Shown here: positions 826 to 11,385 of the stretch, in pieces
How the letters are laid out: every line of letters begins with the position of its first letter
Numbering within the stretch: the stretch's first letter is position 1
IMG/VR virus record: IMGVR_UViG_3300044641_006190
Coordinates: 1,465 to 65,464 of that record
Strand: one strand, 5' to 3'
DNA from: a virus
Lineage: Duplodnaviria; Caudoviricetes
Length of the DNA: 64,000 nt
Program-made: the position numbers and the translations under genes
The notes under the pieces: generated by a model
Seen by the model: only the letters and a program-made list of their open reading frames with translations
The model's database searches: none
Told to the model about the DNA's origin: nothing

Positions 826-853
826 AGTCTATATTCCCTACCAAATTCGTCAA
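826..853 (-). promoter_or_regulatory. Sigma70-like promoter for the capsid gene
   Basis: Minus strand TTGACG-N16-TAGACT, overlapping the scaffold stop codon. Confidence 0.5.
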
Positions 854-1992
854 GAAAGAATTTTTTCGAGTCCTGCCATGAACGAATCCTCGCCATCACC
901 GGCTGCCGGAGAGATTCCGCCGCTGCGAACTGCCGGGGAGACAGCTCCGCGTTTTGCCAGGGATTGTTTGAGGGTCGCCAGCTCCTTGGCCTGCGCCTCG
1001 ATCTTGGAGGCGAGGGAGGGCAGAAGCACGGCGGCGTAGCGGGCGTAGGCCTGCGTCTCCGGCGCGGCCCCGGCCAGATCGGCCTCCTTGGCTTCGGACA
1101 CCAAGCGGGTCACCTCGTCTCCGCCTTCCTTGAGGAAAGGCAGCTTTTCCTGGAGGCCAGTCCAGACCGAGTCGGCCACGCGGCCGAACTCCTCACGTTG
1201 CTTCTGGCGCAGGGTCTCCTGCTCCTTGGCCCGCGACTCCTCCAAATACTTCTTGGACTCGTTGGCCTGGCGTTTCACCTGAACCGACCGCTCGTAGAGT
1301 GACTTGGCCTCGTCCACGACGCGCTTGAACTCATACTTGTCGAAGTCGTTCATGCCGCCGACCAGCTCGGAAAGAAGCTGGTTGCGCTCAAGCACGTTGG
1401 GAGCTGTCGCCGCCTTGGCGATGTCCTTGAGGTCGATCTGATACTTCTCGGCGAAGGACTGGATCAAATCCTCGGCACGGGATAGCGGCTCGGCGATGTT
1501 CATCTGATACTCGCGGCTCTGCTCCACATCGACAAGAGCCATCTTCTGATCGTACTCCTGCAACTGCTTCTTGGACATCTCCAGCTCGGCACGCAGGGAC
1601 TCAATGTCTGCGGTGTTCGCGGCAGACGGCGGCTGCGATTTGAGCCTTGCCAGCTCGGCCTTGGCCTCGTCACGCTCGCGCTCGGCGTCGGCACGGAGCT
1701 TCTTCAACTCCTTCCAGCCAATCTTGTTGACCTCCTTCTTGAGAGGAGGCGCGGCATCCGCGAGATCGGGGTCTTGATTCTCGGGCTCCGGCGACGGCTC
1801 TTCAACCGCTGGCGACGGTTCCTCCTCTCCCGAGGGCTCCTCGTCGGAAGACGGAGGCGGCTCGGAAGATGGCTCTGCTCCGGCAGCCTCAAAAAGTCCG
1901 GCCATAAAGCCAGAATCTCCGTCATCGGAGACGGCAGGGTTATCTGTTTCCGGTGCGTATTCGGCGGCGTGCGGGTCGGTGTTGTCGTTCAT
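850..1992 (-). CDS. Capsid scaffolding protein
   Basis: Acidic, Pro-rich N-terminus and long coiled coil; lies between portal and capsid genes. Confidence 0.7.
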   Translation of the reverse strand: MNDNTDPHAAEYAPETDNPAVSDDGDSGFMAGLFEAAGAEPSSEPPPSSDEEPSGEEEPSPAVEEPSPEPENQDPDLADAAPPLKKEVNKIGWKELKKLRADAERERDEAKAELARLKSQPPSAANTADIESLRAELEMSKKQLQEYDQKMALVDVEQSREYQMNIAEPLSRAEDLIQSFAEKYQIDLKDIAKAATAPNVLERNQLLSELVGGMNDFDKYEFKRVVDEAKSLYERSVQVKRQANESKKYLEESRAKEQETLRQKQREEFGRVADSVWTGLQEKLPFLKEGGDEVTRLVSEAKEADLAGAAPETQAYARYAAVLLPSLASKIEAQAKELATLKQSLAKRGAVSPAVRSGGISPAAGDGEDSFMAGLEKILS

Positions 1993-2282
1993 GCGGAGGG
2001 GTCAGTTTGGGGCTCGGATTTGCGCCACTCTTGCGGCAATTTCTTGGTGATATGGACTTGAGGACGGGACAGTTTCAGGAAGGTGTCGATGGCCTTCTGA
2101 AATCCTGCCTGCTCGGCATGCAGCAGCGCGATGTGAACCGGGTCGGTTCCGTAGTTGCCAGCAGGAGCGTTGGTGGTGCGCAAGACATCCAGCGCATCCT
2201 GGACGATCGGCTGGTTCTTGAGCAACGTGGCCAGCTCCTCGGCGTTCTGCGGGGTGGCATACCAATCTTGGATGGTCATCAT
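1989..2282 (-). CDS. Small head-region hypothetical protein
   Basis: 97 aa, ATGA-coupled to both neighbours. Confidence 0.7.
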   Translation of the reverse strand: MMTIQDWYATPQNAEELATLLKNQPIVQDALDVLRTTNAPAGNYGTDPVHIALLHAEQAGFQKAIDTFLKLSRPQVHITKKLPQEWRKSEPQTDPSA

Positions 2283-2479
2283 GGCGTCAGAATGCGGGGG
2301 ATGGCGTCGTCCTCGATGGCCTCACGAATGAGCTTGCCAGCGTCGAGGATGCCTTGCTTGAGGGTGGTGAACTCGACGATGACGGCGAGCCCGAGTCCGT
2401 CTCCCATGTGACGAAAAACGTGGAGGCTTTTGTCATTGGGGAAGACTTTGATGGAGAAGAGGTATTCGTTTTCGATCAT
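2279..2479 (-). CDS. Hypothetical protein
   Basis: 66 aa, ATGA-coupled. Confidence 0.6.
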   Translation of the reverse strand: MIENEYLFSIKVFPNDKSLHVFRHMGDGLGLAVIVEFTTLKQGILDAGKLIREAIEDDAIPRILTP

Positions 2480-4722
2480 TGGGAAAGTCGCTCCCGGGCG
2501 ATTTTGGCGGCCGCCTCGGCATCCTTGATAAGCATGTCTTGTCGGGCGGTCTCGTCACGGATGCGAAGGTCTTGCTGGTGCTTCTCCTCCGCCATCCGCA
2601 AACGGGTGCTCGTCTCGATGAGCTGGCGTTGGAGCGTGTCCGGGAGATTGTTTGGGTTGGCGGCGTTGGCCTCCGCTTCCGGCTGCTGTTGCTGCTCCTC
2701 CATCACCTTCTGCATGTGTTTGGTGGCGTTGTATAGGATGCCGTCGATCTCCTGCAACCGCTTCTTGATTTGGTTGTAGTCCGGCTCGCTGACAAGGTAT
2801 TGCGCGTGCTCGGAGGTGTGCTGGTGCAAAGCCGTGAGCGCCGGGGTGGCCTGCTCGACCGGAACCGTGCCTTCGTCCAATGCTTGAACAAGGGCTTCCT
2901 CCTCCGGCAGATGCGTGTCGAAGTGGACGCGGTGAAGCGTGTTCGGACGGACGGGAACTTGGTTGCCCTGCTTGAGCACGATGTTCTCAAGGGCGGCCAC
3001 TTCAACCTCCATCGGCGGACGGAGATTTTCGGGAGCCGGAGTGTAGCGGTCTGCCGCCTCAACGCCGCCAAGAGTGCGGGTGAGGTCACGGATGACCTGC
3101 TGGCGTCCTTGCGGATCGAAGTTGGCGGCGAGGGAGTAGAGCTTCTCCATGAGCGCCGAGCGAGCGGCGGAGGAACCCCCACCAACTGCACGCACCGCCT
3201 CGACACGCCCGACATCCACAGCCAGGATGGCCTCGATGGGCACTCCACGCGCCATGCACCGGTCGCGGAACTCCTGGACACTGCGACCGCCCGGGTCCTC
3301 GGGGAAGTAATCCTCGCGGACGGCGCGGCGGACAGTCTCGCGCAGCAGTCTTTCCCACGGGATGTAGAAGAGGTTCAACTGGGCAAGGCTGATGTTGGCC
3401 ACCGACTCAAGCTGTGCTTGCGTCTCAAACTTGGTGCGCTGACGCGCCGAGTTGAAGATCGCCTCGGTGGTGTAGGTGCCCGCCTGCTGCTGGAGCAAGG
3501 TGGACAAGTCATTGAGTCCGGGGATCAAGGACTGGCTGAAATTGGGCTGGTCTTTCTGAATGACCTTGATGTTCGGCGGCTTGACCACGAACGGACCAAA
3601 GTGGACGAGGCTCATGTCCTGCATGGCATCCTCGTTGTCCGGCTCGATCATGAGCATCGAACTTGTCATCAAGCTGTCGTAGAACCGTCCGCGCAGACGG
3701 TTGAGCGCCTGCACCACGGAGAAAATCTTGCTGGCCATGCCACGGATGCTGTGGAAGTAGCCGTTGGTTCCGATGCCAAAGACGAAGGTGTTGAACGCCT
3801 CGCTGGTGTTCGCATACCTGCCCTTGTTCTTGTAGAGGAAACCAACTTCGATGTCCGTGTCCTTCTCGGGGAAGATGTACTGGGAGATTTTCCCGTCCAG
3901 TTCCTTGGCCCACATGAACACCAGCTTCACCTCGGCGGCGGAAGCAGCGGAGGCGGCAAGGTCGTTGTTCTTGAACTCGCGCTGCAACTCCTCCCACGAC
4001 TCGATCGTGTTGGTTGATCTGCTGTGCTGCATCGCGCCAAGCAGCGCCTTCTTCACGGCGGGCACGTTCCAATGCAGCTCGGTGGCAAGCGCCTCGTCCT
4101 CGATCTTCTGGAAGAGTTCGTGCGGAGGGACGCTGCGCACAATGCAGCAAAGCTCGATCTCCTCGTCGGAGGCGCGGGTGTTGCGCGGGATGAGGAAGTC
4201 TCCCAAAGGAGCCACCTGCCAGCGCCAGTCGATCTCATCCTCGCGGAAACAAAGTCCGACGCCATGCACAAGGAACTGCTGGACCAGGAACAGGTAGCGG
4301 GGGAAGAACTCCGGCCAGTTGCGGACCATCCGGGTGAACTCGTCGGCCATGATGGACTCCCACTCGTGGCGCATCTGGGGGTCGCCATAGTTGGTGGGCA
4401 TCGTGTTGAGCACGTCCACCGAGGTCACCAGGTCCAAATACGGGCTCGTCGCCATTGAGACCAACTGCTCGCCCTGGCCCCAGTTGACGTTGCAAATCTC
4501 GCCAAGGCCGTTCATGTCGAGCTTGCTCTGGTCATACGGACTCTCGCCGTCGATCATCGACTGCACTTCTGCACGCCCGCGACGGGCATCCTCATCGGCC
4601 TTGAGCATCCGCTTGTAGGCGGCCTGCGCGGCCTTGGCATCCTTGATGCGGGATCGAAGCAACTGGCCGTCTTCCTGAACTGGAAGAAGGAGGTCTTGGG
4701 AAGTCGTCGGAGTTGGGTTCAT
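2476..4722 (-). CDS. Portal protein
   Basis: 748 aa, helical with a Q-rich coiled-coil C-terminus; downstream of the terminase. Confidence 0.75.
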   Translation of the reverse strand: MNPTPTTSQDLLLPVQEDGQLLRSRIKDAKAAQAAYKRMLKADEDARRGRAEVQSMIDGESPYDQSKLDMNGLGEICNVNWGQGEQLVSMATSPYLDLVTSVDVLNTMPTNYGDPQMRHEWESIMADEFTRMVRNWPEFFPRYLFLVQQFLVHGVGLCFREDEIDWRWQVAPLGDFLIPRNTRASDEEIELCCIVRSVPPHELFQKIEDEALATELHWNVPAVKKALLGAMQHSRSTNTIESWEELQREFKNNDLAASAASAAEVKLVFMWAKELDGKISQYIFPEKDTDIEVGFLYKNKGRYANTSEAFNTFVFGIGTNGYFHSIRGMASKIFSVVQALNRLRGRFYDSLMTSSMLMIEPDNEDAMQDMSLVHFGPFVVKPPNIKVIQKDQPNFSQSLIPGLNDLSTLLQQQAGTYTTEAIFNSARQRTKFETQAQLESVANISLAQLNLFYIPWERLLRETVRRAVREDYFPEDPGGRSVQEFRDRCMARGVPIEAILAVDVGRVEAVRAVGGGSSAARSALMEKLYSLAANFDPQGRQQVIRDLTRTLGGVEAADRYTPAPENLRPPMEVEVAALENIVLKQGNQVPVRPNTLHRVHFDTHLPEEEALVQALDEGTVPVEQATPALTALHQHTSEHAQYLVSEPDYNQIKKRLQEIDGILYNATKHMQKVMEEQQQQPEAEANAANPNNLPDTLQRQLIETSTRLRMAEEKHQQDLRIRDETARQDMLIKDAEAAAKIARERLSQ

Positions 4723-5486
4723 GGCTGTGTGGGTTCCTTGCGCGGCCGTCCACGACCACGTTTGGGAGCCTCAAGCGTAGCCTCGTTCTGCGGAACGTCC
4801 AACACGTCCTCTCCAGCCTCCGGCTCATTGCCGAGAATGTTGTCGGAGATGGAACTTCCCGCAAGCCGGGTGACCACCACATGACCGGCGCGAGGTCTGA
4901 AATCCTCCTGCCAGTTGGCATTGGCGATCTGCTCCGTGATGGCCGAGTTCTTGACCATCTCAAAACGGCGGAAGACCTCGTGGTGCGTGCCGTGATTGCG
5001 GGCGGTGTTCTTCTCCAGCTTGGTCACGTTGGCCGGATAGACCGCCGCCTCCAGAATGTAGGGGTCGCCCAAATCAAGACGATCCACGCCGGACACGTCA
5101 CGGAACCTGCGGGTCAGGTTCGACTGGCAGCCAAGGTAGCGGCGGAGAGATTCGCGGTAGTTGCGGTCCAGCACGTCCGCCCAGTTCGGAACCAGCGGCA
5201 GCGTGTCTGAGGTCAGGTAGAACCAATGTTCCGTGAGCATGTTGCGGGCCACGGCGTCGAACACCTCGTTGGATGATCTCGGCGGCTCACGATAGATGGT
5301 CGGCAGGACGGCCTTGAAAGTCACATCCCGGATGCCGTCGAAAATGCTCTGGACTTCGGTGAGCAACGAGCCGGTCGTGAAAACCGTGATCTTGTGGCGG
5401 GCGTCGAGAGGGCCAAAGTGGCGGAGAACTGCGGCCAGCGTCCGTGCGCGAGGCAGCGCCTTATTGGTAACAGGGATTGCAATATC
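4719..5486 (-). CDS. Glycosyltransferase-like protein with C-terminal AT-hook
   Basis: Start likely MDIAIPV. WFYLTSDTLPLVPNW...AAVYP aligns by eye with 57583-58398. Ends KRGRGRPRK. Confidence 0.5.
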   Translation of the reverse strand, partial: DIAIPVTNKALPRARTLAAVLRHFGPLDARHKITVFTTGSLLTEVQSIFDGIRDVTFKAVLPTIYREPPRSSNEVFDAVARNMLTEHWFYLTSDTLPLVPNWADVLDRNYRESLRRYLGCQSNLTRRFRDVSGVDRLDLGDPYILEAAVYPANVTKLEKNTARNHGTHHEVFRRFEMVKNSAITEQIANANWQEDFRPRAGHVVVTRLAGSSISDNILGNEPEAGEDVLDVPQNEATLEAPKRGRGRPRKEPTQP

Positions 5487-5527
5487 CATTTTCGCTATTT
5501 TTGGGCGGATATTTACCAATGCAACCC

Positions 5528-8320
5528 TTAATTTGCCCGCATCCTGGCGAATTTCCGGGAAAATGCCTTGAAAGCGGACACCCTGGCCGGGGAATTTTCT
5601 TTTTCGTGCGGACGTGTGCGCAATTTACTGGAGAGTCCAAGACGGGAACGGCAAAGCTCAAGGCAGAGCAAGGCGGCGTCCGCACGGTCAGGGGATTTTC
5701 CAATCCTCGCCTTCATGTCTTTTTTCGGCTCCACCTGCACCTTGCCGCGCTGCTTGTTCTCAAATTTCCGGGCGCAGAGTTCCTTGGCCAGCGCCGGGTA
5801 GATACCCCTGATCTGGCCGGACTGGAGATATTCCCTGCCCGAAAACCAAATTTCTGACACGCGGTTGATATACCGGTCCTTGGAGGGAGTCGGGTCGGTG
5901 CCGCTGGCTGGCAGATTCGATGCCTGCCCGCTGAAATTCACTTCCAGGAACTCGCCGCTCCACTCGGACCTGACCACATCGCAGAAAGGTTTGCCCGCGC
6001 CGGTGCCGTCGATCGCCAGCCGCTTCGGGTGGACATTGCGGGCCTCGCAGGCCGCACGCAGCAGGCGGATGATCTGGTGGGTGCGCGGCTCGTCCTTGAT
6101 GTCACGGTCTTCCTGCAACTCGGCAAAGTCTCCCCACTCCAGAACTTTGTTGCCGTCCTTGTCCTCGCCGAACTTCCCGAACTGCACGAAACTGTCGTCG
6201 CCGCCGTTGGTGAACGCCGGGTCGAATCCGGCGACCGCGTCCGGCGGGGTTTTCCAAAAGGTCTTGGAGTCGCCGCGATATTTGATGATGTCCGCCTCGC
6301 TGAACACTCCTTCGTCAACGCCGGTCTCGTGGAACCAGCCTTTCACGAAGCGGGCATACCGCTGGGTGGTCTCGCCAAGCATGGATTTGAAGTCGGCCAG
6401 CTTGCGGGCGGTCATCATCCAAGGGTAGCGGTCTTCTCCCAGCAGGATGTTGGGGGATTTCTCCCCGTCGAACCGGATGCACTTGCCAAGGACTGTCTCC
6501 CACTCCTCGGAGTCTGAGTGGATCGAACCCCAACCGTTCTTCGGCGTGGAGAACACTCCAAAGGGATCGTAGTGGCTGTTCGGGTTCCCGATGCCGAGCA
6601 TGCTGAAATCCGGGTTGGAATACAGGTTGGCCTCCGCCGCATTGAGGAGCTTCTCGGAAAGCTCCGGCAACTCATCGCAGATCAGGATCACGCGGGAGCC
6701 TTTGTAGCCGATCAGCTTGCCCATGGCCTCGTTGGCCTTGGACTTCTCACCGGCGATGAGAACCAGTCCTTGACGGTCGGATTTGAAGTTGCCCTGCCGG
6801 TAGCGGATCATCCCCGAGGCCGAGACCAGCTCTCCCGGGAGCACCTGCTCGCCCCCAAGCACGGCTGCGGCGGCCTGCCAATACTCCTCCACCGAGCCCC
6901 AAATACGCTGACGCGAGTCTTTGAGGGATGTGGAGGTTACCAGAACCTTGGTGCCGCTGGGGGCAGCCAGGAAGTTCACGATGCCCCAGATGGCCCCAAA
7001 CTCACTCTTCCCAGAATTGTGGTGAATCGCCCCTTCTGCAAAATAATGGTGTTCAACAGGAACATTCAGGTCATAGAAATCGTGAACTCCGACACTTTGA
7101 ATTGATTCGACCACAACAAGTGATACCTGTAAAGGCAATGAGTGCTTGGGCAAAGAATCTTCTGAGGAATCAAGAAGTTCTGGCTCTGTTCCAGACGACA
7201 GGCAGCACCCGCTTGGTTGCTGACCAAATGGGCCTTCCACTGAGGACAGTTTCTCACATCCTGAAATCGAATGGTGTAAATACACCTCGGGAGGGTCGCC
7301 GTCACAACCCGTACGCTTCCTGTGATCGAAATGCGGAACTGGTTCTCCAAATGAACCGGGAAGGCCGCTCTCTAGCTGAAATGGCAAAGGCGGTTGGCAC
7401 CAAAGGGAGTGAGGTGAAGAAATTTCTTCGGCGTCACGGGGAGACGCGAGAGTTTCCAAAAGCCGTGACGGGGCCTCGTCATTACGCGTGGAAGGGGCGG
7501 ACAACAGATGCGGATGGGTATGTTCTGGTGCATGTGAAAGGTCATCCCAGACAAAGGAGACATGCCCCGTATATCTTTGAGCATCGTCTGGTGATGGAGC
7601 AGCACTTAGGGCGGCCGCTTGAGCGGCGCGAAGTTGTTCACCATAAAGATGGAAACAAGGCGAATAATCAGATCGAGAATCTGCAACTGTTCCAAAGCAA
7701 TGCCGAGCATCTGGCTTTCGAGTTGAAAAGTCGGACCCCAAAGTGGTCGCCGGAAGGTCGGGCGCGTATCCAAAAAGCTCGCTGGCCACAGTCACCGACT
7801 CTGCTCGAACCCACCCATGCGGAGTCAAAAGCCGATGCGCCTTCGTACACTTGAATGACTCTCCGTTGGACAGCTTGAACTCGAAAAGCTCCTCCCGACC
7901 TTTCAGGTAGGGCACGTCTGCGAGAACCGGGCCGTTGAGGGTCTGCACAACTGGTTGAATTTTCGACTCACATAGCTCTCGGATAGTGGGCAAGTTTCCA
8001 GTTAGAGGGTCCAGCATCCGGGTATCTCCTGAAACGCAGGAGGAGCATCCGGCGATCGCGAGGAACTTGTTCGCGCAGGCGTTTTCCAACATCCGCTCGG
8101 CCCAAGGGTGGAAGACGAATTTCTTGGTCGAGGCCTTTGAGTTCCAAATGGCATTGACGATGTTTTTGAAGTGGGTCGGCTTCCCCGGGGAGGTTTTCGG
8201 CGGATTGAGGAAGGCTTCCAGTTCCAGGGTCAGGTCGTGCATCGGTTTTCCAGCAACCGGACGCCACCAGACCCCATACTTTTCGCGGTAGCCTTGAGCG
8301 ATGAGATCGGATTTTTTCAT
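5528..8320 (-). CDS. terL: Terminase large subunit with an intein in the Walker A motif
   Basis: Spliced Walker A GCSS|SGKS, Walker B LICDE, GNP motif, RNase H-like AGFDPA...AIDGTG...SPDRADA. Confidence 0.93.
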   Translation of the reverse strand: MKKSDLIAQGYREKYGVWWRPVAGKPMHDLTLELEAFLNPPKTSPGKPTHFKNIVNAIWNSKASTKKFVFHPWAERMLENACANKFLAIAGCSSCVSGDTRMLDPLTGNLPTIRELCESKIQPVVQTLNGPVLADVPYLKGREELFEFKLSNGESFKCTKAHRLLTPHGWVRAESVTVASELFGYAPDLPATTLGSDFSTRKPDARHCFGTVADSRSDYSPCFHLYGEQLRAAQAAALSAAPSPDDAQRYTGHVSFVWDDLSHAPEHTHPHLLSAPSTRNDEAPSRLLETLASPRDAEEISSPHSLWCQPPLPFQLESGLPGSFGEPVPHFDHRKRTGCDGDPPEVYLHHSISGCEKLSSVEGPFGQQPSGCCLSSGTEPELLDSSEDSLPKHSLPLQVSLVVVESIQSVGVHDFYDLNVPVEHHYFAEGAIHHNSGKSEFGAIWGIVNFLAAPSGTKVLVTSTSLKDSRQRIWGSVEEYWQAAAAVLGGEQVLPGELVSASGMIRYRQGNFKSDRQGLVLIAGEKSKANEAMGKLIGYKGSRVILICDELPELSEKLLNAAEANLYSNPDFSMLGIGNPNSHYDPFGVFSTPKNGWGSIHSDSEEWETVLGKCIRFDGEKSPNILLGEDRYPWMMTARKLADFKSMLGETTQRYARFVKGWFHETGVDEGVFSEADIIKYRGDSKTFWKTPPDAVAGFDPAFTNGGDDSFVQFGKFGEDKDGNKVLEWGDFAELQEDRDIKDEPRTHQIIRLLRAACEARNVHPKRLAIDGTGAGKPFCDVVRSEWSGEFLEVNFSGQASNLPASGTDPTPSKDRYINRVSEIWFSGREYLQSGQIRGIYPALAKELCARKFENKQRGKVQVEPKKDMKARIGKSPDRADAALLCLELCRSRLGLSSKLRTRPHEKENSPARVSAFKAFSRKFARMRAN
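7016..8038 (-). mobile_element. Cis intein (341 aa) in TerL
   Basis: N-terminal CVSGDTRM, block B CTKAHRLL, C-terminal FYDLNVPVEHHYFAEGAIHHN followed by Ser. Confidence 0.93.
7138..7854 (+). CDS. HNH homing endonuclease encoded antisense inside the TerL intein
   Basis: Two HTH-like N-terminal segments, then WKG...DGYV...EHRLVMEQHLGRPL...EVVHHKDGNKANNQIENL. ATG at 7138 follows AAAGG. Confidence 0.88.
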   Translation: MSAWAKNLLRNQEVLALFQTTGSTRLVADQMGLPLRTVSHILKSNGVNTPREGRRHNPYASCDRNAELVLQMNREGRSLAEMAKAVGTKGSEVKKFLRRHGETREFPKAVTGPRHYAWKGRTTDADGYVLVHVKGHPRQRRHAPYIFEHRLVMEQHLGRPLERREVVHHKDGNKANNQIENLQLFQSNAEHLAFELKSRTPKWSPEGRARIQKARWPQSPTLLEPTHAESKADAPSYT

Positions 8321-8452
8321 GGGCCTTCCTTAAAACAATTATTAAACATTACCCTAGACGGGAAAAATTTTCCAGACACCGACGTAGAACCCCGGCGGCC
8401 CGGAATCTGGGGGTGGGGGAGGACCGGTGGTGGTCTGGTGGCGGGCGCTTGC

Positions 8453-8971
8453 TCATTTTCCGGCGGGGGGTAGCGGTTTGGGGGGCGGCACCAATTCTGG
8501 CGGGGCAGGCTGGATGGCGAAGGGCAAAGGCGTTTTTTCCTCGGATTTGTCCGAAAACTCGACGTAAGCCGGACACTGACTGGAGTTTATCTCTGGGAAG
8601 TGCAGCGAAACGAGCGGCGCGGCGGTCTTGTCGAGTCCAGCGGCACGCTCCGCGATCCGGGCGGCGCGTTCTATATCCTCCCACCTTTCGAGCTTTCGCG
8701 GGGTGGCGGTGCGTAGGGCGGTGTTGGCGAGGTCGTACAGCGTGCCGCGCAGGCGTTCGCCCTTCTGCTCCCATGACTCGGCGACGACGGCGGCGGGGGG
8801 CTTGGGGACTGGCGGGGATGGGGCCGAGGCCGCAAGGCGGGCAGGTGTGGGCCATTGCTCCCGCTGTGCGCGTTTCTTCGCTGTTTCGTAGGCAAGCCCG
8901 TACTTCCCGGCGGCCTCCTTTATTGTGAGCCCGAGCGCAACTGCCTCCCTACATGCTGTCCAATCGTCCAT
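8453..8971 (-). CDS. Probable terminase small subunit
   Basis: N-terminal HTH (W...GLTIKEAAGKYGLAYETAKKRAQREQW), immediately upstream of terL. Confidence 0.65.
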   Translation of the reverse strand: MDDWTACREAVALGLTIKEAAGKYGLAYETAKKRAQREQWPTPARLAASAPSPPVPKPPAAVVAESWEQKGERLRGTLYDLANTALRTATPRKLERWEDIERAARIAERAAGLDKTAAPLVSLHFPEINSSQCPAYVEFSDKSEEKTPLPFAIQPAPPELVPPPKPLPPAGK

Positions 8972-8976
8972 GGGCG

Positions 8977-9018
8977 CAAAAAAAAGCCCGCCCCGGCGAA
9001 AATGCAAGGGCGGGCGGT
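8977..9018 (-). terminator. Intrinsic terminator
   Basis: Minus strand gcccgccc...gggcgggc followed by a T-tract, just after the peptidase gene. Confidence 0.7.
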
Positions 9019-9034
9019 GACGAGAGCGCGGGGG

Positions 9035-10078
9035 CTATTTGTTGCCGTGCTTTCTCGTCCAGAATTCTACGCATTCGGAGCAAAGCCCCCCGGCCCCCGG
9101 CTCGGGAGAGTGCAGCGAGCCACAGCCGGGACACGTTACTGCATCCCAGGTGTCCCGCTCGTCCTGTTCCCACTCCCACGCGAGCCGAGAAACGCCAGCC
9201 GGGCGATGGCCTCGGCGTTTGCTCTCGATACGAGAGAAAAACGGCGCGGGCCGCTCTTGTTTGGGGAGCGTCCAGCGGCGGGTACCTAGCTGCTGGCATA
9301 TGTCGAGCATCAGGGCCGCGCAGTTATCGAGTTGATCCAGATCAACGTACTCGTGGCTCGTGTGCGGGTTGTGATACCCTGCCGACAAATTGGCCGCACA
9401 GACTCCCGCACCGCGATCAACCAATGCTTCAACATCGGTCATCATGCCGATGGATGGCGCATAGCCTCGCGCTTTTAGTAGTGGTTTCACCGCTGCTCGA
9501 AACTTCGCGCTTTGCAGATCGAGCGAGCCGATGCGATGCACAAAGTCCGTGCTTCCGCGTCTGTCCGCTTGGAGGATTAGCGAGGCGTCCGCGACGTGTG
9601 CAAGGTCGATTTGTCGCGAGCCGTGGCAGCCTACCTCCTCATCCACCATAAACAGCAGCCGGAACGCGGGCAGCCGCTCGGCCACGGCGATGGCCGCAGC
9701 AATGCCACATTTGTCATCGCCCCCAACGCCGATTTGCTGACACTCGTCCGCGTCCATCGCGTAAAGCCTCCGCCCTAATCGGTGCAACGTGAGGCTCCCG
9801 GTGATCTCATGCACCGTGTCGAGATGTGCGACGAGCACGGGCCGTACGTCTGCGGTGCCATGGCTCACAATCACGTTGCCGTGTTCATCTCGCTCAACGT
9901 CCCAGCCGCGAGCGGTGCAGAGATCCGCAACGTTCTGAGCTTGGGCCTCGCAATCGTAGCTCGCGGATTCAACGCGGAAAACAGCTTCTAGGAGGTCGGA
10001 GGAGATGCGGAATGGGGCTTTGGTCTTGTTCTTTTTCATGAATGCTTTCTGGTTTGGTGGTTTAGTTCCGGGGTTCAT
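9035..10078 (-). CDS. M20/M28-family zinc peptidase-like protein
   Basis: AHLDTVH, GGDDKCG, DEEVG, QADRRG, GYHNPH motifs; C-terminal CxxC..CxxC. Confidence 0.85.
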   Translation of the reverse strand: MNPGTKPPNQKAFMKKNKTKAPFRISSDLLEAVFRVESASYDCEAQAQNVADLCTARGWDVERDEHGNVIVSHGTADVRPVLVAHLDTVHEITGSLTLHRLGRRLYAMDADECQQIGVGGDDKCGIAAAIAVAERLPAFRLLFMVDEEVGCHGSRQIDLAHVADASLILQADRRGSTDFVHRIGSLDLQSAKFRAAVKPLLKARGYAPSIGMMTDVEALVDRGAGVCAANLSAGYHNPHTSHEYVDLDQLDNCAALMLDICQQLGTRRWTLPKQERPAPFFSRIESKRRGHRPAGVSRLAWEWEQDERDTWDAVTCPGCGSLHSPEPGAGGLCSECVEFWTRKHGNK

Positions 10079-11385
10079 GCGCGGGAGACGTAGCGATCGT
10101 GCAGGTATATCGTGCCGATCCGCCCGCCTACTTCGACTTCGTAAGCGTCAGCGCGTAGGATGTATTCGTCATCATTGTGACAATACACAACGCGGTCGTC
10201 GTGTGTTGCGTAGTAGTCACCGTCAATGCAGGTCGCGTCGCTCTCGTCGATCCACTCCCCATCGACATCCTGAACCTGCCCGGCATGGTTGTCGTCGCGG
10301 CCGCCGGTCGTGCAGCAGTACCGGTACTCCCAGCTCGAATCTTCGCGAGCGTAAAGTACGTCCCCGTCCTGATATTGGAAGGTGTCGATGTAGGGGAAGA
10401 ATCGGCAGCCTTCGACACTTTTCGCAAGCTCCACCGAAACGCCGCGATGGTAGGCGGAGCCGTCGGGCATGAGCCAAGAGCTGTTTCCGCTCCGGTCGGC
10501 TTCTTTCTTAGCCCATCCCTGCGAAAAAACGTACTCGATCACCGCTTCCCGGATGTGAGGTTGTGCATACAGCCGGTCCACTACCGTCCCAAGTTCCTGC
10601 GTCTCCCAGATCACCGCCCGCGCTACAAATTTCCCGTTTTGCTTGCCTACTAGCAAGCGAGCGCCTGCTCGCTCGTAAAATGCGCCGACAGGTTCCCCCC
10701 ACATGCAAGAGGTGATGCCGTGCGGCGTCGCGTCGCTCCTATCTGCCCCCCAATTCTCCGCGTTATATGCCTCATCGAAGCCCGCCGCCGTGGTGACGAG
10801 GTCCCACGCGATTTTCTCCCCGGCCTCTACGCCGCCGAAGGCTTCAGCGAAGGCCGCGTACTCGTCGTCCTTGAACCGCTCCGGGTGCCTCAAAACGCCG
10901 CGAGCGAATTTCGCGGGCTTGATTTCGACTCGGCCCGCTCGCTCCCATCTGCCATCGGCGGTGATGCCCTGTGTCCTGTTCGCGGGGCAGTAGCTGACAA
11001 GGCCCTCCCGTTCTCGAACTGAGAAGTGATTCCCGAAGGGAGCCACTGAATGAGAGACGCGGGACGACGCCGCAGAAAGCAGCGCCTCGGCCACGCGTGC
11101 CGCCTTCGCGTTCGGACCTGCCGCAATGCGTTGCAGCCAGTCGGAGAGAGTCCCCGACAAGCGAAGCCCCGAAGGGTACGCGGCCTTTCGCTGCGCAATC
11201 GTCGGCGGTTGCCAGTGATTGCGGAAGCTCACGCGGCCGCGTGCGTTGCGAATGTAGGGTATCGCGTACGAGTACCGGCCATCAACCGCCCAGTCTCTAG
11301 CGAGATCCAGCGGGTAATCAGGGGTCAGCCCAAGGCGATGAAACTCGCGAAGATTGCGCTCGATTTTTTGCTCTATTGTTTTCAT
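10075..11385 (-). CDS. Conserved-looking phage hypothetical protein
   Basis: SCM...ARAVIW...DRLY...PYIDTF pattern with an acidic C-terminus; ATGA-coupled to the peptidase. Confidence 0.7.
   Translation of the reverse strand: MKTIEQKIERNLREFHRLGLTPDYPLDLARDWAVDGRYSYAIPYIRNARGRVSFRNHWQPPTIAQRKAAYPSGLRLSGTLSDWLQRIAAGPNAKAARVAEALLSAASSRVSHSVAPFGNHFSVREREGLVSYCPANRTQGITADGRWERAGRVEIKPAKFARGVLRHPERFKDDEYAAFAEAFGGVEAGEKIAWDLVTTAAGFDEAYNAENWGADRSDATPHGITSCMWGEPVGAFYERAGARLLVGKQNGKFVARAVIWETQELGTVVDRLYAQPHIREAVIEYVFSQGWAKKEADRSGNSSWLMPDGSAYHRGVSVELAKSVEGCRFFPYIDTFQYQDGDVLYAREDSSWEYRYCCTTGGRDDNHAGQVQDVDGEWIDESDATCIDGDYYATHDDRVVYCHNDDEYILRADAYEVEVGGRIGTIYLHDRYVSRA

Follow-up and report, generated by a model that had tools for sequence, protein, structure and literature searches.

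An HNH nuclease gene on the antisense strand of a class-1 intein in a probable phage terminase gene

The sequence analysed here, hereafter the window, is a stretch of 64,000 nucleotides (positions 1,465 to 65,464) from the IMG/VR virus record IMGVR_UViG_3300044641_006190 (Duplodnaviria; Caudoviricetes), which is 65,464 bp long and has direct terminal repeats at its ends. The region 850..11385 of the window is coding entirely on the minus strand, and it includes an open reading frame (ORF) of 930 amino acids (aa), without internal stop, that probably encodes the precursor of the large terminase subunit (TerL). Within the Walker A (P-loop) motif of this protein sits a class-1 intein of 341 aa, encoded free of stops at 7016..8038 on the minus strand. 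Inside the intein, on the opposite strand, lies a second gene, whose 238-aa product has two helix-turn-helix (HTH) modules followed by an HNH_3 nuclease core. The whole is probably a composite mobile element, that is, a class-1 intein in the P-loop codons of a probable TerL gene that carries its homing-endonuclease gene on the opposite strand. The features are collected in Table 1.

Table 1. Features of the intein-bearing gene and of the gene on its opposite strand (positions in the window)
Feature	Position	Strand	Basis
Probable TerL precursor gene, 930 aa including the intein	5528..8320	-	ORF and phrog_2 match
N-extein, 94 aa, ends ...KFLAIAGCSS	8039..8320	-	Junction reading and intein-less alleles
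Intein N-terminal splicing part, residues 1-93 (Cys1; block B T65..H68)	7760..8038	-	
Sense-frame 'shadow' linker, residues 94-299, stop-free, non-conserved, predicted disordered	7142..7759	-	
Intein C-terminal splicing part, residues 300-341 (blocks F/G, ...AIHHN), then Ser+1	7016..7141	-	
C-extein, 495 aa and stop, starts SGKS (remainder of Walker A)	5528..7015	-	ORF and junction alleles
Probable antisense homing-endonuclease gene, 238 aa and stop, two HTH modules then HNH_3	7138..7854	+	
N-terminal DNA-binding region, residues 1-99, two predicted HTH bundles	7138..7434	+	AlphaFold model
HNH_3 catalytic core, residues 149-185	7582..7692	+	Pfam match

The intein and its host gene

The intein begins with CVSGDTR, directly after the flank ...KFLAIAGCSS, and finishes with AIHHN, which is followed by SGKS. 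The nucleophile at position 1 (C1), the two fixed residues of the Thr-x-x-His of block B (T65 and H68) and the residues D323, H340 and N341 do not vary among the 10 aligned inteins, and the C-terminal His-Asn is followed by a Ser+1 that is equally unvaried in the 10 aligned relatives. In the AlphaFold model the confidence score pLDDT is 78-91 for the N part and 59-96 for the C part. A Foldseek search with this model retrieved the Mtu RecA, Ssp DnaB and Npu DnaE inteins or mini-inteins with a probability of 1.00 and E values of about 1e-5 (the best being 9.5e-6), and both intein halves are confidently predicted to adopt the Hint fold. Between them, pLDDT is below 50 at residues 94-132 and 148-301 and about 25 over most of this length. 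The exception is a stretch at residues ~128-147, which reaches about 60 and which, by coordinate arithmetic, sits opposite residues ~153-174 of the HNH core, the most conserved part of the nuclease. Besides Intein_splicing, no Pfam family was matched by the intein at E <= 0.1. An inversion switch was also considered and rejected, as inverted repeats of at least 14 nt are absent from 6800..8300.

Identification of the host gene as that of TerL is moderately supported by sequence comparison. The ORF matches phrog_2 ('terminase large subunit') in the PHROG database with E 3.8e-6 and contains a Walker A motif, and its Pfam match to Terminase_6C (E 0.0038; 17.7 bits) is under the cut-off of 22.6. 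A sequence search of the PDB with the C-extein returned zero matches, and PHROG and Pfam scans of the neighbouring genes and of the intein-less TerL relatives gave next to nothing.

The antisense HNH gene

The plus-strand ORF 6928..7854 holds an ATG at 7138, from which the 238 codons and the stop are read. Its product matches Pfam HNH_3 over residues 149-185 (E 1.3e-11; 44.4 bits against a cut-off of 24.8) and, among the PHROGs, the HNH endonuclease family phrog_10730 (E 3e-25). The putative catalytic residues H168, H169, N177, N181 and H191 are unvaried in all 41 aligned homologues. The AlphaFold model of the protein, with a mean pLDDT of 88.1 and values of 93-98 across the core, consists of two helical bundles (helices at residues 3-21, 24-31 and 35-44, and at 61-64, 66-74, 79-86 and 90-99) followed by a beta-beta-alpha core. 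The Foldseek matches of the N-terminal region, to paired HTH and homeodomain folds, are weak, and HTH Pfam families are recorded (precomputed) for some of the HNH homologues.

The initial annotation of this DNA had described an intein at 7016-8038 with intact splicing blocks and a motif-less interior, and on the opposite strand a complete HTH-HTH-HNH gene with its own ATG at 7138-7854. The coordinates and the class-1 residues are correct, the sense interior has no Pfam or PHROG match, and the ORF, the HNH_3 match and the predicted layout of the model agree with the gene as it was described.

With regard to composition, the wobble frequencies of A/C/G/T are 0.18/0.18/0.36/0.28 in the HNH gene (7138..7854) and 0.09/0.44/0.35/0.12 in the TerL C-extein (5531..7015), a contrast that would fit either the overlap constraint or a foreign origin of the gene.

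Openness and selection in the two-strand overlap

Because the minus-strand ORF and the plus-strand ORF 6928..7854 are both open, the stretch 7138..7854 is free of stops on both strands. A stop in the TerL frame arises wherever a codon beginning with A comes next after an HNH codon that has TT, CT or TC at its end. The openness of the sense frame was tested by shuffling synonymous codons inside the HNH gene, 20,000 times per sequence, for nine distinct sequences. With the HNH gene of the window the sense frame stayed open in 0 of the 20,000 shuffles, the mean expectation being 7.25 stops where none is observed. Across the nine sequences 4.7-11.9 sense-frame stops are expected, none is observed in any of the nine, and P(open) ranges from 0 to 0.0017.

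Nucleotide differences in the overlap average 0.28, 0.22 and 0.54 at HNH codon positions 1, 2 and 3, most of the variation falling at sense codon position 2. Between the window and its relatives, 54-59% of the amino acids are identical in the HNH frame and, read from the same bases, 27-34% in the sense interior; mean identities are 0.64 and 0.35, respectively. The ratio of non-synonymous to synonymous changes (dN/dS, or omega), calculated by the Nei-Gojobori method (NG86), is 0.07-0.17 in the HNH frame (for the 6 of 10 pairs with unsaturated dS) and 1.3-7.7 in the shadow frame, where the high values are an artefact of the overlap and not positive selection. The HNH frame is thus under purifying selection, and the sense frame is selected only against stops. 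The sense interior is selected to be open, and it may be selected for solubility as well. As it is little conserved and predicted to be disordered, the interior would be a translated filler.

Several statements of the initial annotation bear on these results. That both strands stay free of stops for 717 nt is true over 7138..7854, and the comparison of dN/dS in both frames which it proposed has found the constraint in the HNH frame and none of the kind in the shadow. Its picture of the interior as an antisense shadow holds, the intein being contiguous and its interior a non-conserved shadow of the nuclease gene. Its proposal that the nuclease is expressed independently gains support from comparative sequence data: since the HNH frame is under purifying selection, the nuclease would have to come from its own message.

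A comparison with four DNA sequencing runs, at the level of contigs, showed no joint across the intein. Population variants were found at 12 sites of one contig. Seven of these in the C-extein and two in the Hint parts are synonymous in TerL. The remaining three fall in the overlap, and one of them leaves the HNH protein unchanged. These numbers are too small for a test.

Relatives at the TerL site

Scans of viral contigs with HNH and TerL queries yielded 29 loci, 13 of which carry, besides the window, an intein with an antisense HNH match of 57-62% identity (two of them, L028 and L029, are cut by contig ends). Including that of the window, 12 full inteins were examined, which represent nine distinct sequences. 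None of the 12 contains a sense-frame stop, and the antisense ORF, which measures 231-309 aa from stop to stop, is intact in each; the initial annotation had named a broken antisense ORF in relatives as evidence that would speak against it, and the ORF proves whole in all of them. The relative register of the two frames is identical in the nine distinct sequences, which also share the position of the HNH ATG, 122 nt inside the C-terminal end of the intein.

The same site is also found empty. Intein-less TerL relatives occur at L014, L015 and L016, with 83-85% TerL identity, and at L020, and the junction of the first three, KFLAIAGCSS^SGKSEFGAIWGI, equals the flanks of the window and is exactly the predicted spliced product. 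A third state is represented by L030 (3196-3636, plus strand), where a mini-intein of 147 aa without HNH occupies the same TerL site. The extein of L030 is 78-82% identical to those of the full-intein carriers L017, L018 and L022, and its mini-intein is probably a deletion derivative. The existence of empty, full and mini states is as expected for a homing element. Related to this, the intein parts are 56-72% (N part) and 76-85% (C part) identical, whereas the C-exteins of the carriers share 32-44%.

One locus from the genome collection, L031, on a contig of an uncultured Opitutae metagenome-assembled genome (MAG), has an HNH 56% identical to that of the window in a host ORF of 943 aa, and it is the sole member of that collection with the window's own type of TerL intein. 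This hints, though no more than that, at Verrucomicrobiota as the hosts of these lake-water phages.

The layout in other host genes

A profile scan of species-representative genomes was carried out, and 80 loci were kept. In 29 of them an opposite-strand ORF of at least 400 aa wholly covers the HNH match, and 27 of the 29 are in the register of the window; the long antisense frames of the other two, L069 and L108, are in another register, come with no intein evidence and were taken as chance. When 28 host ORFs were compared with Pfam, Intein_splicing was matched at E <= 0.05 in 22 of them, with five above the gathering score. When narrow profiles of the Hint halves were applied under a strict rule on position, the two halves were both confirmed in only 11 of the 80 loci, and Pfam was the more sensitive test. 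Among the host proteins recognised by Pfam there are eight terminases (Terminase_6N/6C or Terminase_3), three SNF2/Helicase_C proteins, two AAA ATPases, one TraG-like protein and two Strawberry-notch-like (Sno-like) helicases, the last within polyvalent proteins of ~2,800 aa. The junctions are P-loops of the form G..G/C...HN/SGK[ST] or HN/TG.GKG (strokes mark the intein ends), and in the shorter inteins, of 279-298 aa, the HNH lacks the first HTH.

No sense-frame stop is observed in the 27 embedded loci, where shuffles expect 1.8-10.3 (P(open) 0-0.10), whereas in the same frame of 51 non-embedded relatives stops occur at 4.4 per 100 codons, all but five of the 51 having at least one. As the 27 loci were picked for their openness, it is the non-embedded control that weighs more.

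Cultured phages are found among the carriers. In Pectobacterium phage Koroua (PQ008972.1), a 754-aa 'hypothetical protein' is a Terminase_6 protein with an intein in its Walker A motif; its coding sequence (L111:1107-3371, minus strand) adjoins the portal gene, and an intact antisense HNH ORF of 232 aa (L111:2480-3178, plus strand) is unannotated. At the level of matches, the Pectobacterium phages Amona, Taid, Pappous, Sabo, Ymer and Abuela and Dickeya phage Setonix are alike. At another locus, L038 (1833-4739, minus strand), Intein_splicing is matched at residues 93-342 and a weak Vint/Hint match lies at 759-832, so there may be a second Hint-type insert in this host ORF. Resolution of the HNH tree is poor beyond the window-type clade, 19 of its 38 inner branches having a support below 80.

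Register and dipeptide footprint

In the register that all these inteins share, HNH codon position 1 is opposite host position 1 and the HNH wobble is opposite host position 2, and host-frame stops can therefore be removed by synonymous changes in HNH. The actual shadow peptides are hydrophilic, with a mean hydropathy of -0.63 and 42% P/S/G/T/Q. The other antisense register in which stops are avoidable would give hydrophobic peptides (+0.26, with 40% V/I/L/F/M/W/Y), and the third is blocked because a His-Tyr of HNH is conserved, as follows from codon arithmetic on the alignment. The choice of register may thus be explained by the hydrophilicity of the shadow together with the avoidability of stops.

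This register leaves a footprint in the nuclease itself, as any of I, M, T, N or K directly after a Phe forces a host-frame stop. Such dipeptides are absent from the 120 nearest of 217 database homologues (P0004-P0123). In the embedded genome loci they follow 0 of 104 Phe, and in the non-embedded relatives 54 of 214. To judge by this pattern, the 217 homologues would mostly, if not all, be embedded too; given that related sequences are not independent, the footprint is supportive only.

Relation to known systems

The antisense placement of an intein nuclease is already known, and in implying novelty for it the initial annotation went too far. Antisense LAGLIDADG enzymes in the inteins of Synechocystis dnaX and of a Chloroflexus SpoVR-like protein, and antisense VSR-like homing endonucleases in actinophage inteins, are described in the accessible text of Gosselin, Arsenault and Gogarten (bioRxiv 10.1101/2025.01.02.630785), where the first antisense LAGLIDADG cases are credited to Gorbalenya 1998 and Gogarten 2002. 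According to the same text, those inteins resemble that of the window in being contiguous, with an opposite-strand nuclease between the splicing blocks, in including TerL among their hosts, in their patchy distribution, as homing predicts, and in the origin proposed for them, a homing-endonuclease gene standing on its own that invaded an intein. They differ in that the nuclease of the window is HTH-HTH-HNH_3 and not LAGLIDADG or VSR-like, and the layout described here extends far beyond actinophages to many P-loop NTPase hosts. HNH nucleases of inteins are reported in that text in frame only, and its supplementary tables might list more types. Being an HNH_3 enzyme, the nuclease of the window is thus outside the reported antisense subtypes; no printed case of an intein whose HNH is antisense, or on the opposite strand, came up in a literature search, supplementary files lying outside its coverage.

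Another related system is the cyanobacterial dnaX intein with its out-of-frame LAGLIDADG enzyme (Phillips et al. 2026, bioRxiv 10.64898/2026.09.14.751524), for which the accessible text gives, as in the window, a low dN/dS of the nuclease frame and a raised one in the overlapped intein frame. Nuclease family and host gene are others, and the dnaX nuclease is in the +2 frame. In fractured genes (Dassa et al. 2009, PMC2677866), which are mostly found in phage-like DNA, split inteins have a free-standing endonuclease gene between their halves, and this gene, as in the window, is located between the N and C intein parts and outside the intein polypeptide. The sense frame of the window, on the other hand, is continuous and kept open by selection; here, too, the comparison follows the accessible part of the paper.

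An HNH enzyme hidden in another gene is known from the ShiLan type, in which an HNH is found out of frame on the same strand of mycobacteriophage DNA methylase genes (Arsenault et al. 2025, PMC11855218). As far as the accessible text goes, it resembles the window in that the HNH gene overlaps a stop-free host ORF, and it differs in that it uses another frame of the same strand and has no splicing domain, whereas the HNH of the window is antisense inside a Hint-fold intein. The HNH of the window is 35% identical over residues 78-191 to mycobacteriophage methylase genes; the same-strand matches come from Mycobacterium phages KashFlow, Thibault, Bombitas and others, where they are annotated as DNA methylase or HNH endonuclease. 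Presumably these matches are the hidden HNH of ShiLan, so that both hidden-nuclease systems would share one nuclease family. In the genome scan, DNA methylase ORFs were also met at L068 (2943-4667, minus strand) and L070 (1523-4489, minus strand), with N6_N4_Mtase matched in two stretches and an antisense HNH_3 core in the register of the intein cases, and no Hint or intein match was found in them. They look like the antisense equivalent of the ShiLan-type insertion already published.

In structure, the PDB entry retrieved with the highest probability by Foldseek, for the nuclease core, was I-HmuI (1u3e_M), which likewise combines an HNH core with separate DNA-binding modules (95 columns, 26% identity, probability 0.98, with a weak E of 0.15). 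I-HmuI is encoded in a group I intron on the sense strand, and in contrast to it the DNA-binding modules of the window's enzyme are N-terminal.

It is therefore well supported that the anatomy and the selected two-strand overlap are real and that they represent a rare but known layout of non-canonical inteins. New here are the HNH_3 nuclease, the broad range of host genes and the fixed register.

Proposed mechanism and alternative explanations

In the proposed mechanism, the ribosome would read TerL straight across the intein. The middle of the intein, some 205 residues that are the shadow of the nuclease gene, would act as a hydrophilic disordered tether joining the Hint halves, which would fold and splice so that GCSS-SGKS is restored. 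From a separate antisense message, the 238-aa HTH-HTH-HNH_3 protein would be made, and in a co-infection it might nick or cut an intein-less terL near the P-loop codons. Repair off the occupied allele would then copy both the intein and the nuclease gene, which would constitute homing.

Some results weigh against this account. The Pfam Intein_splicing match of the intein (E 4.2e-8) scores 33.6 bits, just under the curated cut-off of 35.8; the matches by which the host gene was identified as that of TerL are weak, and so is the E value of the I-HmuI match. With regard to expression, a scan for sigma-70-like consensus sites on both strands of 6500..8400 found 0, against 0.8 +/- 0.9 in shuffles, and the promoter candidate that had been put forward at 7102-7129 was consequently not confirmed. 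No conserved Shine-Dalgarno sequence was seen before the HNH ATG in nine sequences, and a conserved ATTGAC... upstream of it is also the antisense of the block F codons and hence uninformative alone. No RNA sequencing run is listed for the stretch, and the suggestion in the initial annotation of a perhaps early expression thus gains no support. One of the population variants alters the nearly invariant Gly76. Finally, HNH and Hint divergence across host families are not correlated (rho 0.05, with 729 of 2000 permutations as high), so long-term travel as one unit and a single composite origin are unsupported.

The want of an expression signal and of RNA evidence is what an HNH ORF recently dead or never expressed would predict, the element then persisting by the splicing of the intein alone. 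An antisense relic would gain stops fast, however, whereas all nine distinct sequences, at ~60% identity, have kept the ORF whole and share a conserved ATG, the omega of the ORF is 0.07-0.17, and the putative catalytic residues are unvaried in the 41 homologues; a dead gene is thus considered quite improbable. A living gene might, on the other hand, have been co-opted by the phage, as a packaging HNH associated with the terminase or as an antisense regulator of terL, and not be a homing enzyme. Packaging-assisting HNH endonucleases adjoining terminase genes are indeed known (according to the accessible text of PMC3592412), and the gene is located inside terL. Against this stand the close TerL relatives of 83-85% identity which lack both intein and HNH, the antisense occurrence of the same HNH clade in the inteins that helicases, AAA ATPases and a TraG-like protein carry, and the patchy pattern of empty, full and mini states, which suits a selfish element. 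Co-option is accordingly regarded as unlikely.

Other readings concern the sense strand. If the gene were fractured, two TerL polypeptides with a split intein would be joined by trans-splicing, with a free-standing nuclease gene between them and an untranslated interior. Intein halves around a free-standing endonuclease gene are known from metagenomes (PMC2677866, in its accessible part), and the predicted disorder of the interior would agree with such a state. A split gene, however, needs no open frame, and not one sense-frame stop is found in the 12 full inteins and the 27 embedded genome loci, for which shuffles expect 1.8-11.9; the stop after the N-intein and the separate C-intein start of a split intein are absent here, the probability that the frame is open by chance being at most 0.0017. 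This makes a fractured gene very hard to credit. It is just as implausible that the sense interior is a functional in-frame domain to which the antisense ORF is secondary. Such a domain might be suspected from the pLDDT of ~60 at residues ~128-147 and from a few nearly invariant interior columns, but this stretch lies opposite the most conserved HNH core (~153-174), and elsewhere the pLDDT is ~25, the identity is 27-34%, the variation is mainly at sense position 2 and neither Pfam nor PHROG is matched. The composite mobile element remains the probable explanation.

Implications

With this locus, HNH enzymes join the short list of nucleases encoded antisense within inteins. The layout is common and widespread, being found in many P-loop NTPase genes from many phyla, and it is no curiosity of actinophages. 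Both gene callers and GenBank records overlook these nuclease genes, as the record of Pectobacterium phage Koroua illustrates, and the ban on certain dipeptides could serve to flag embedded nuclease genes from the protein sequence alone.

A more tentative idea, held at somewhat less than even confidence, is that one HTH-HNH_3 clade has specialised in lying antisense to host frames, the register being always the same. If so, the clade would have spread among phages, plasmid-like elements, bacteria and archaeal MAGs by way of their P-loop NTPase genes, and would even occur antisense in methylase ORFs without a Hint domain, such as L068 and L070; the antisense placement would moreover uncouple expression of the nuclease from the late terL message.

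The overlap is in addition a clean natural case of ~700 nt read on two strands, in which one frame is selected for its sequence and the other to stay open and, possibly, soluble. It may be useful for work on overlapping genes and for models of intein origin of the 'splicing first, nuclease later' kind, and in the cultured phages that share the layout, splicing, antisense expression and homing can be put to a direct test.

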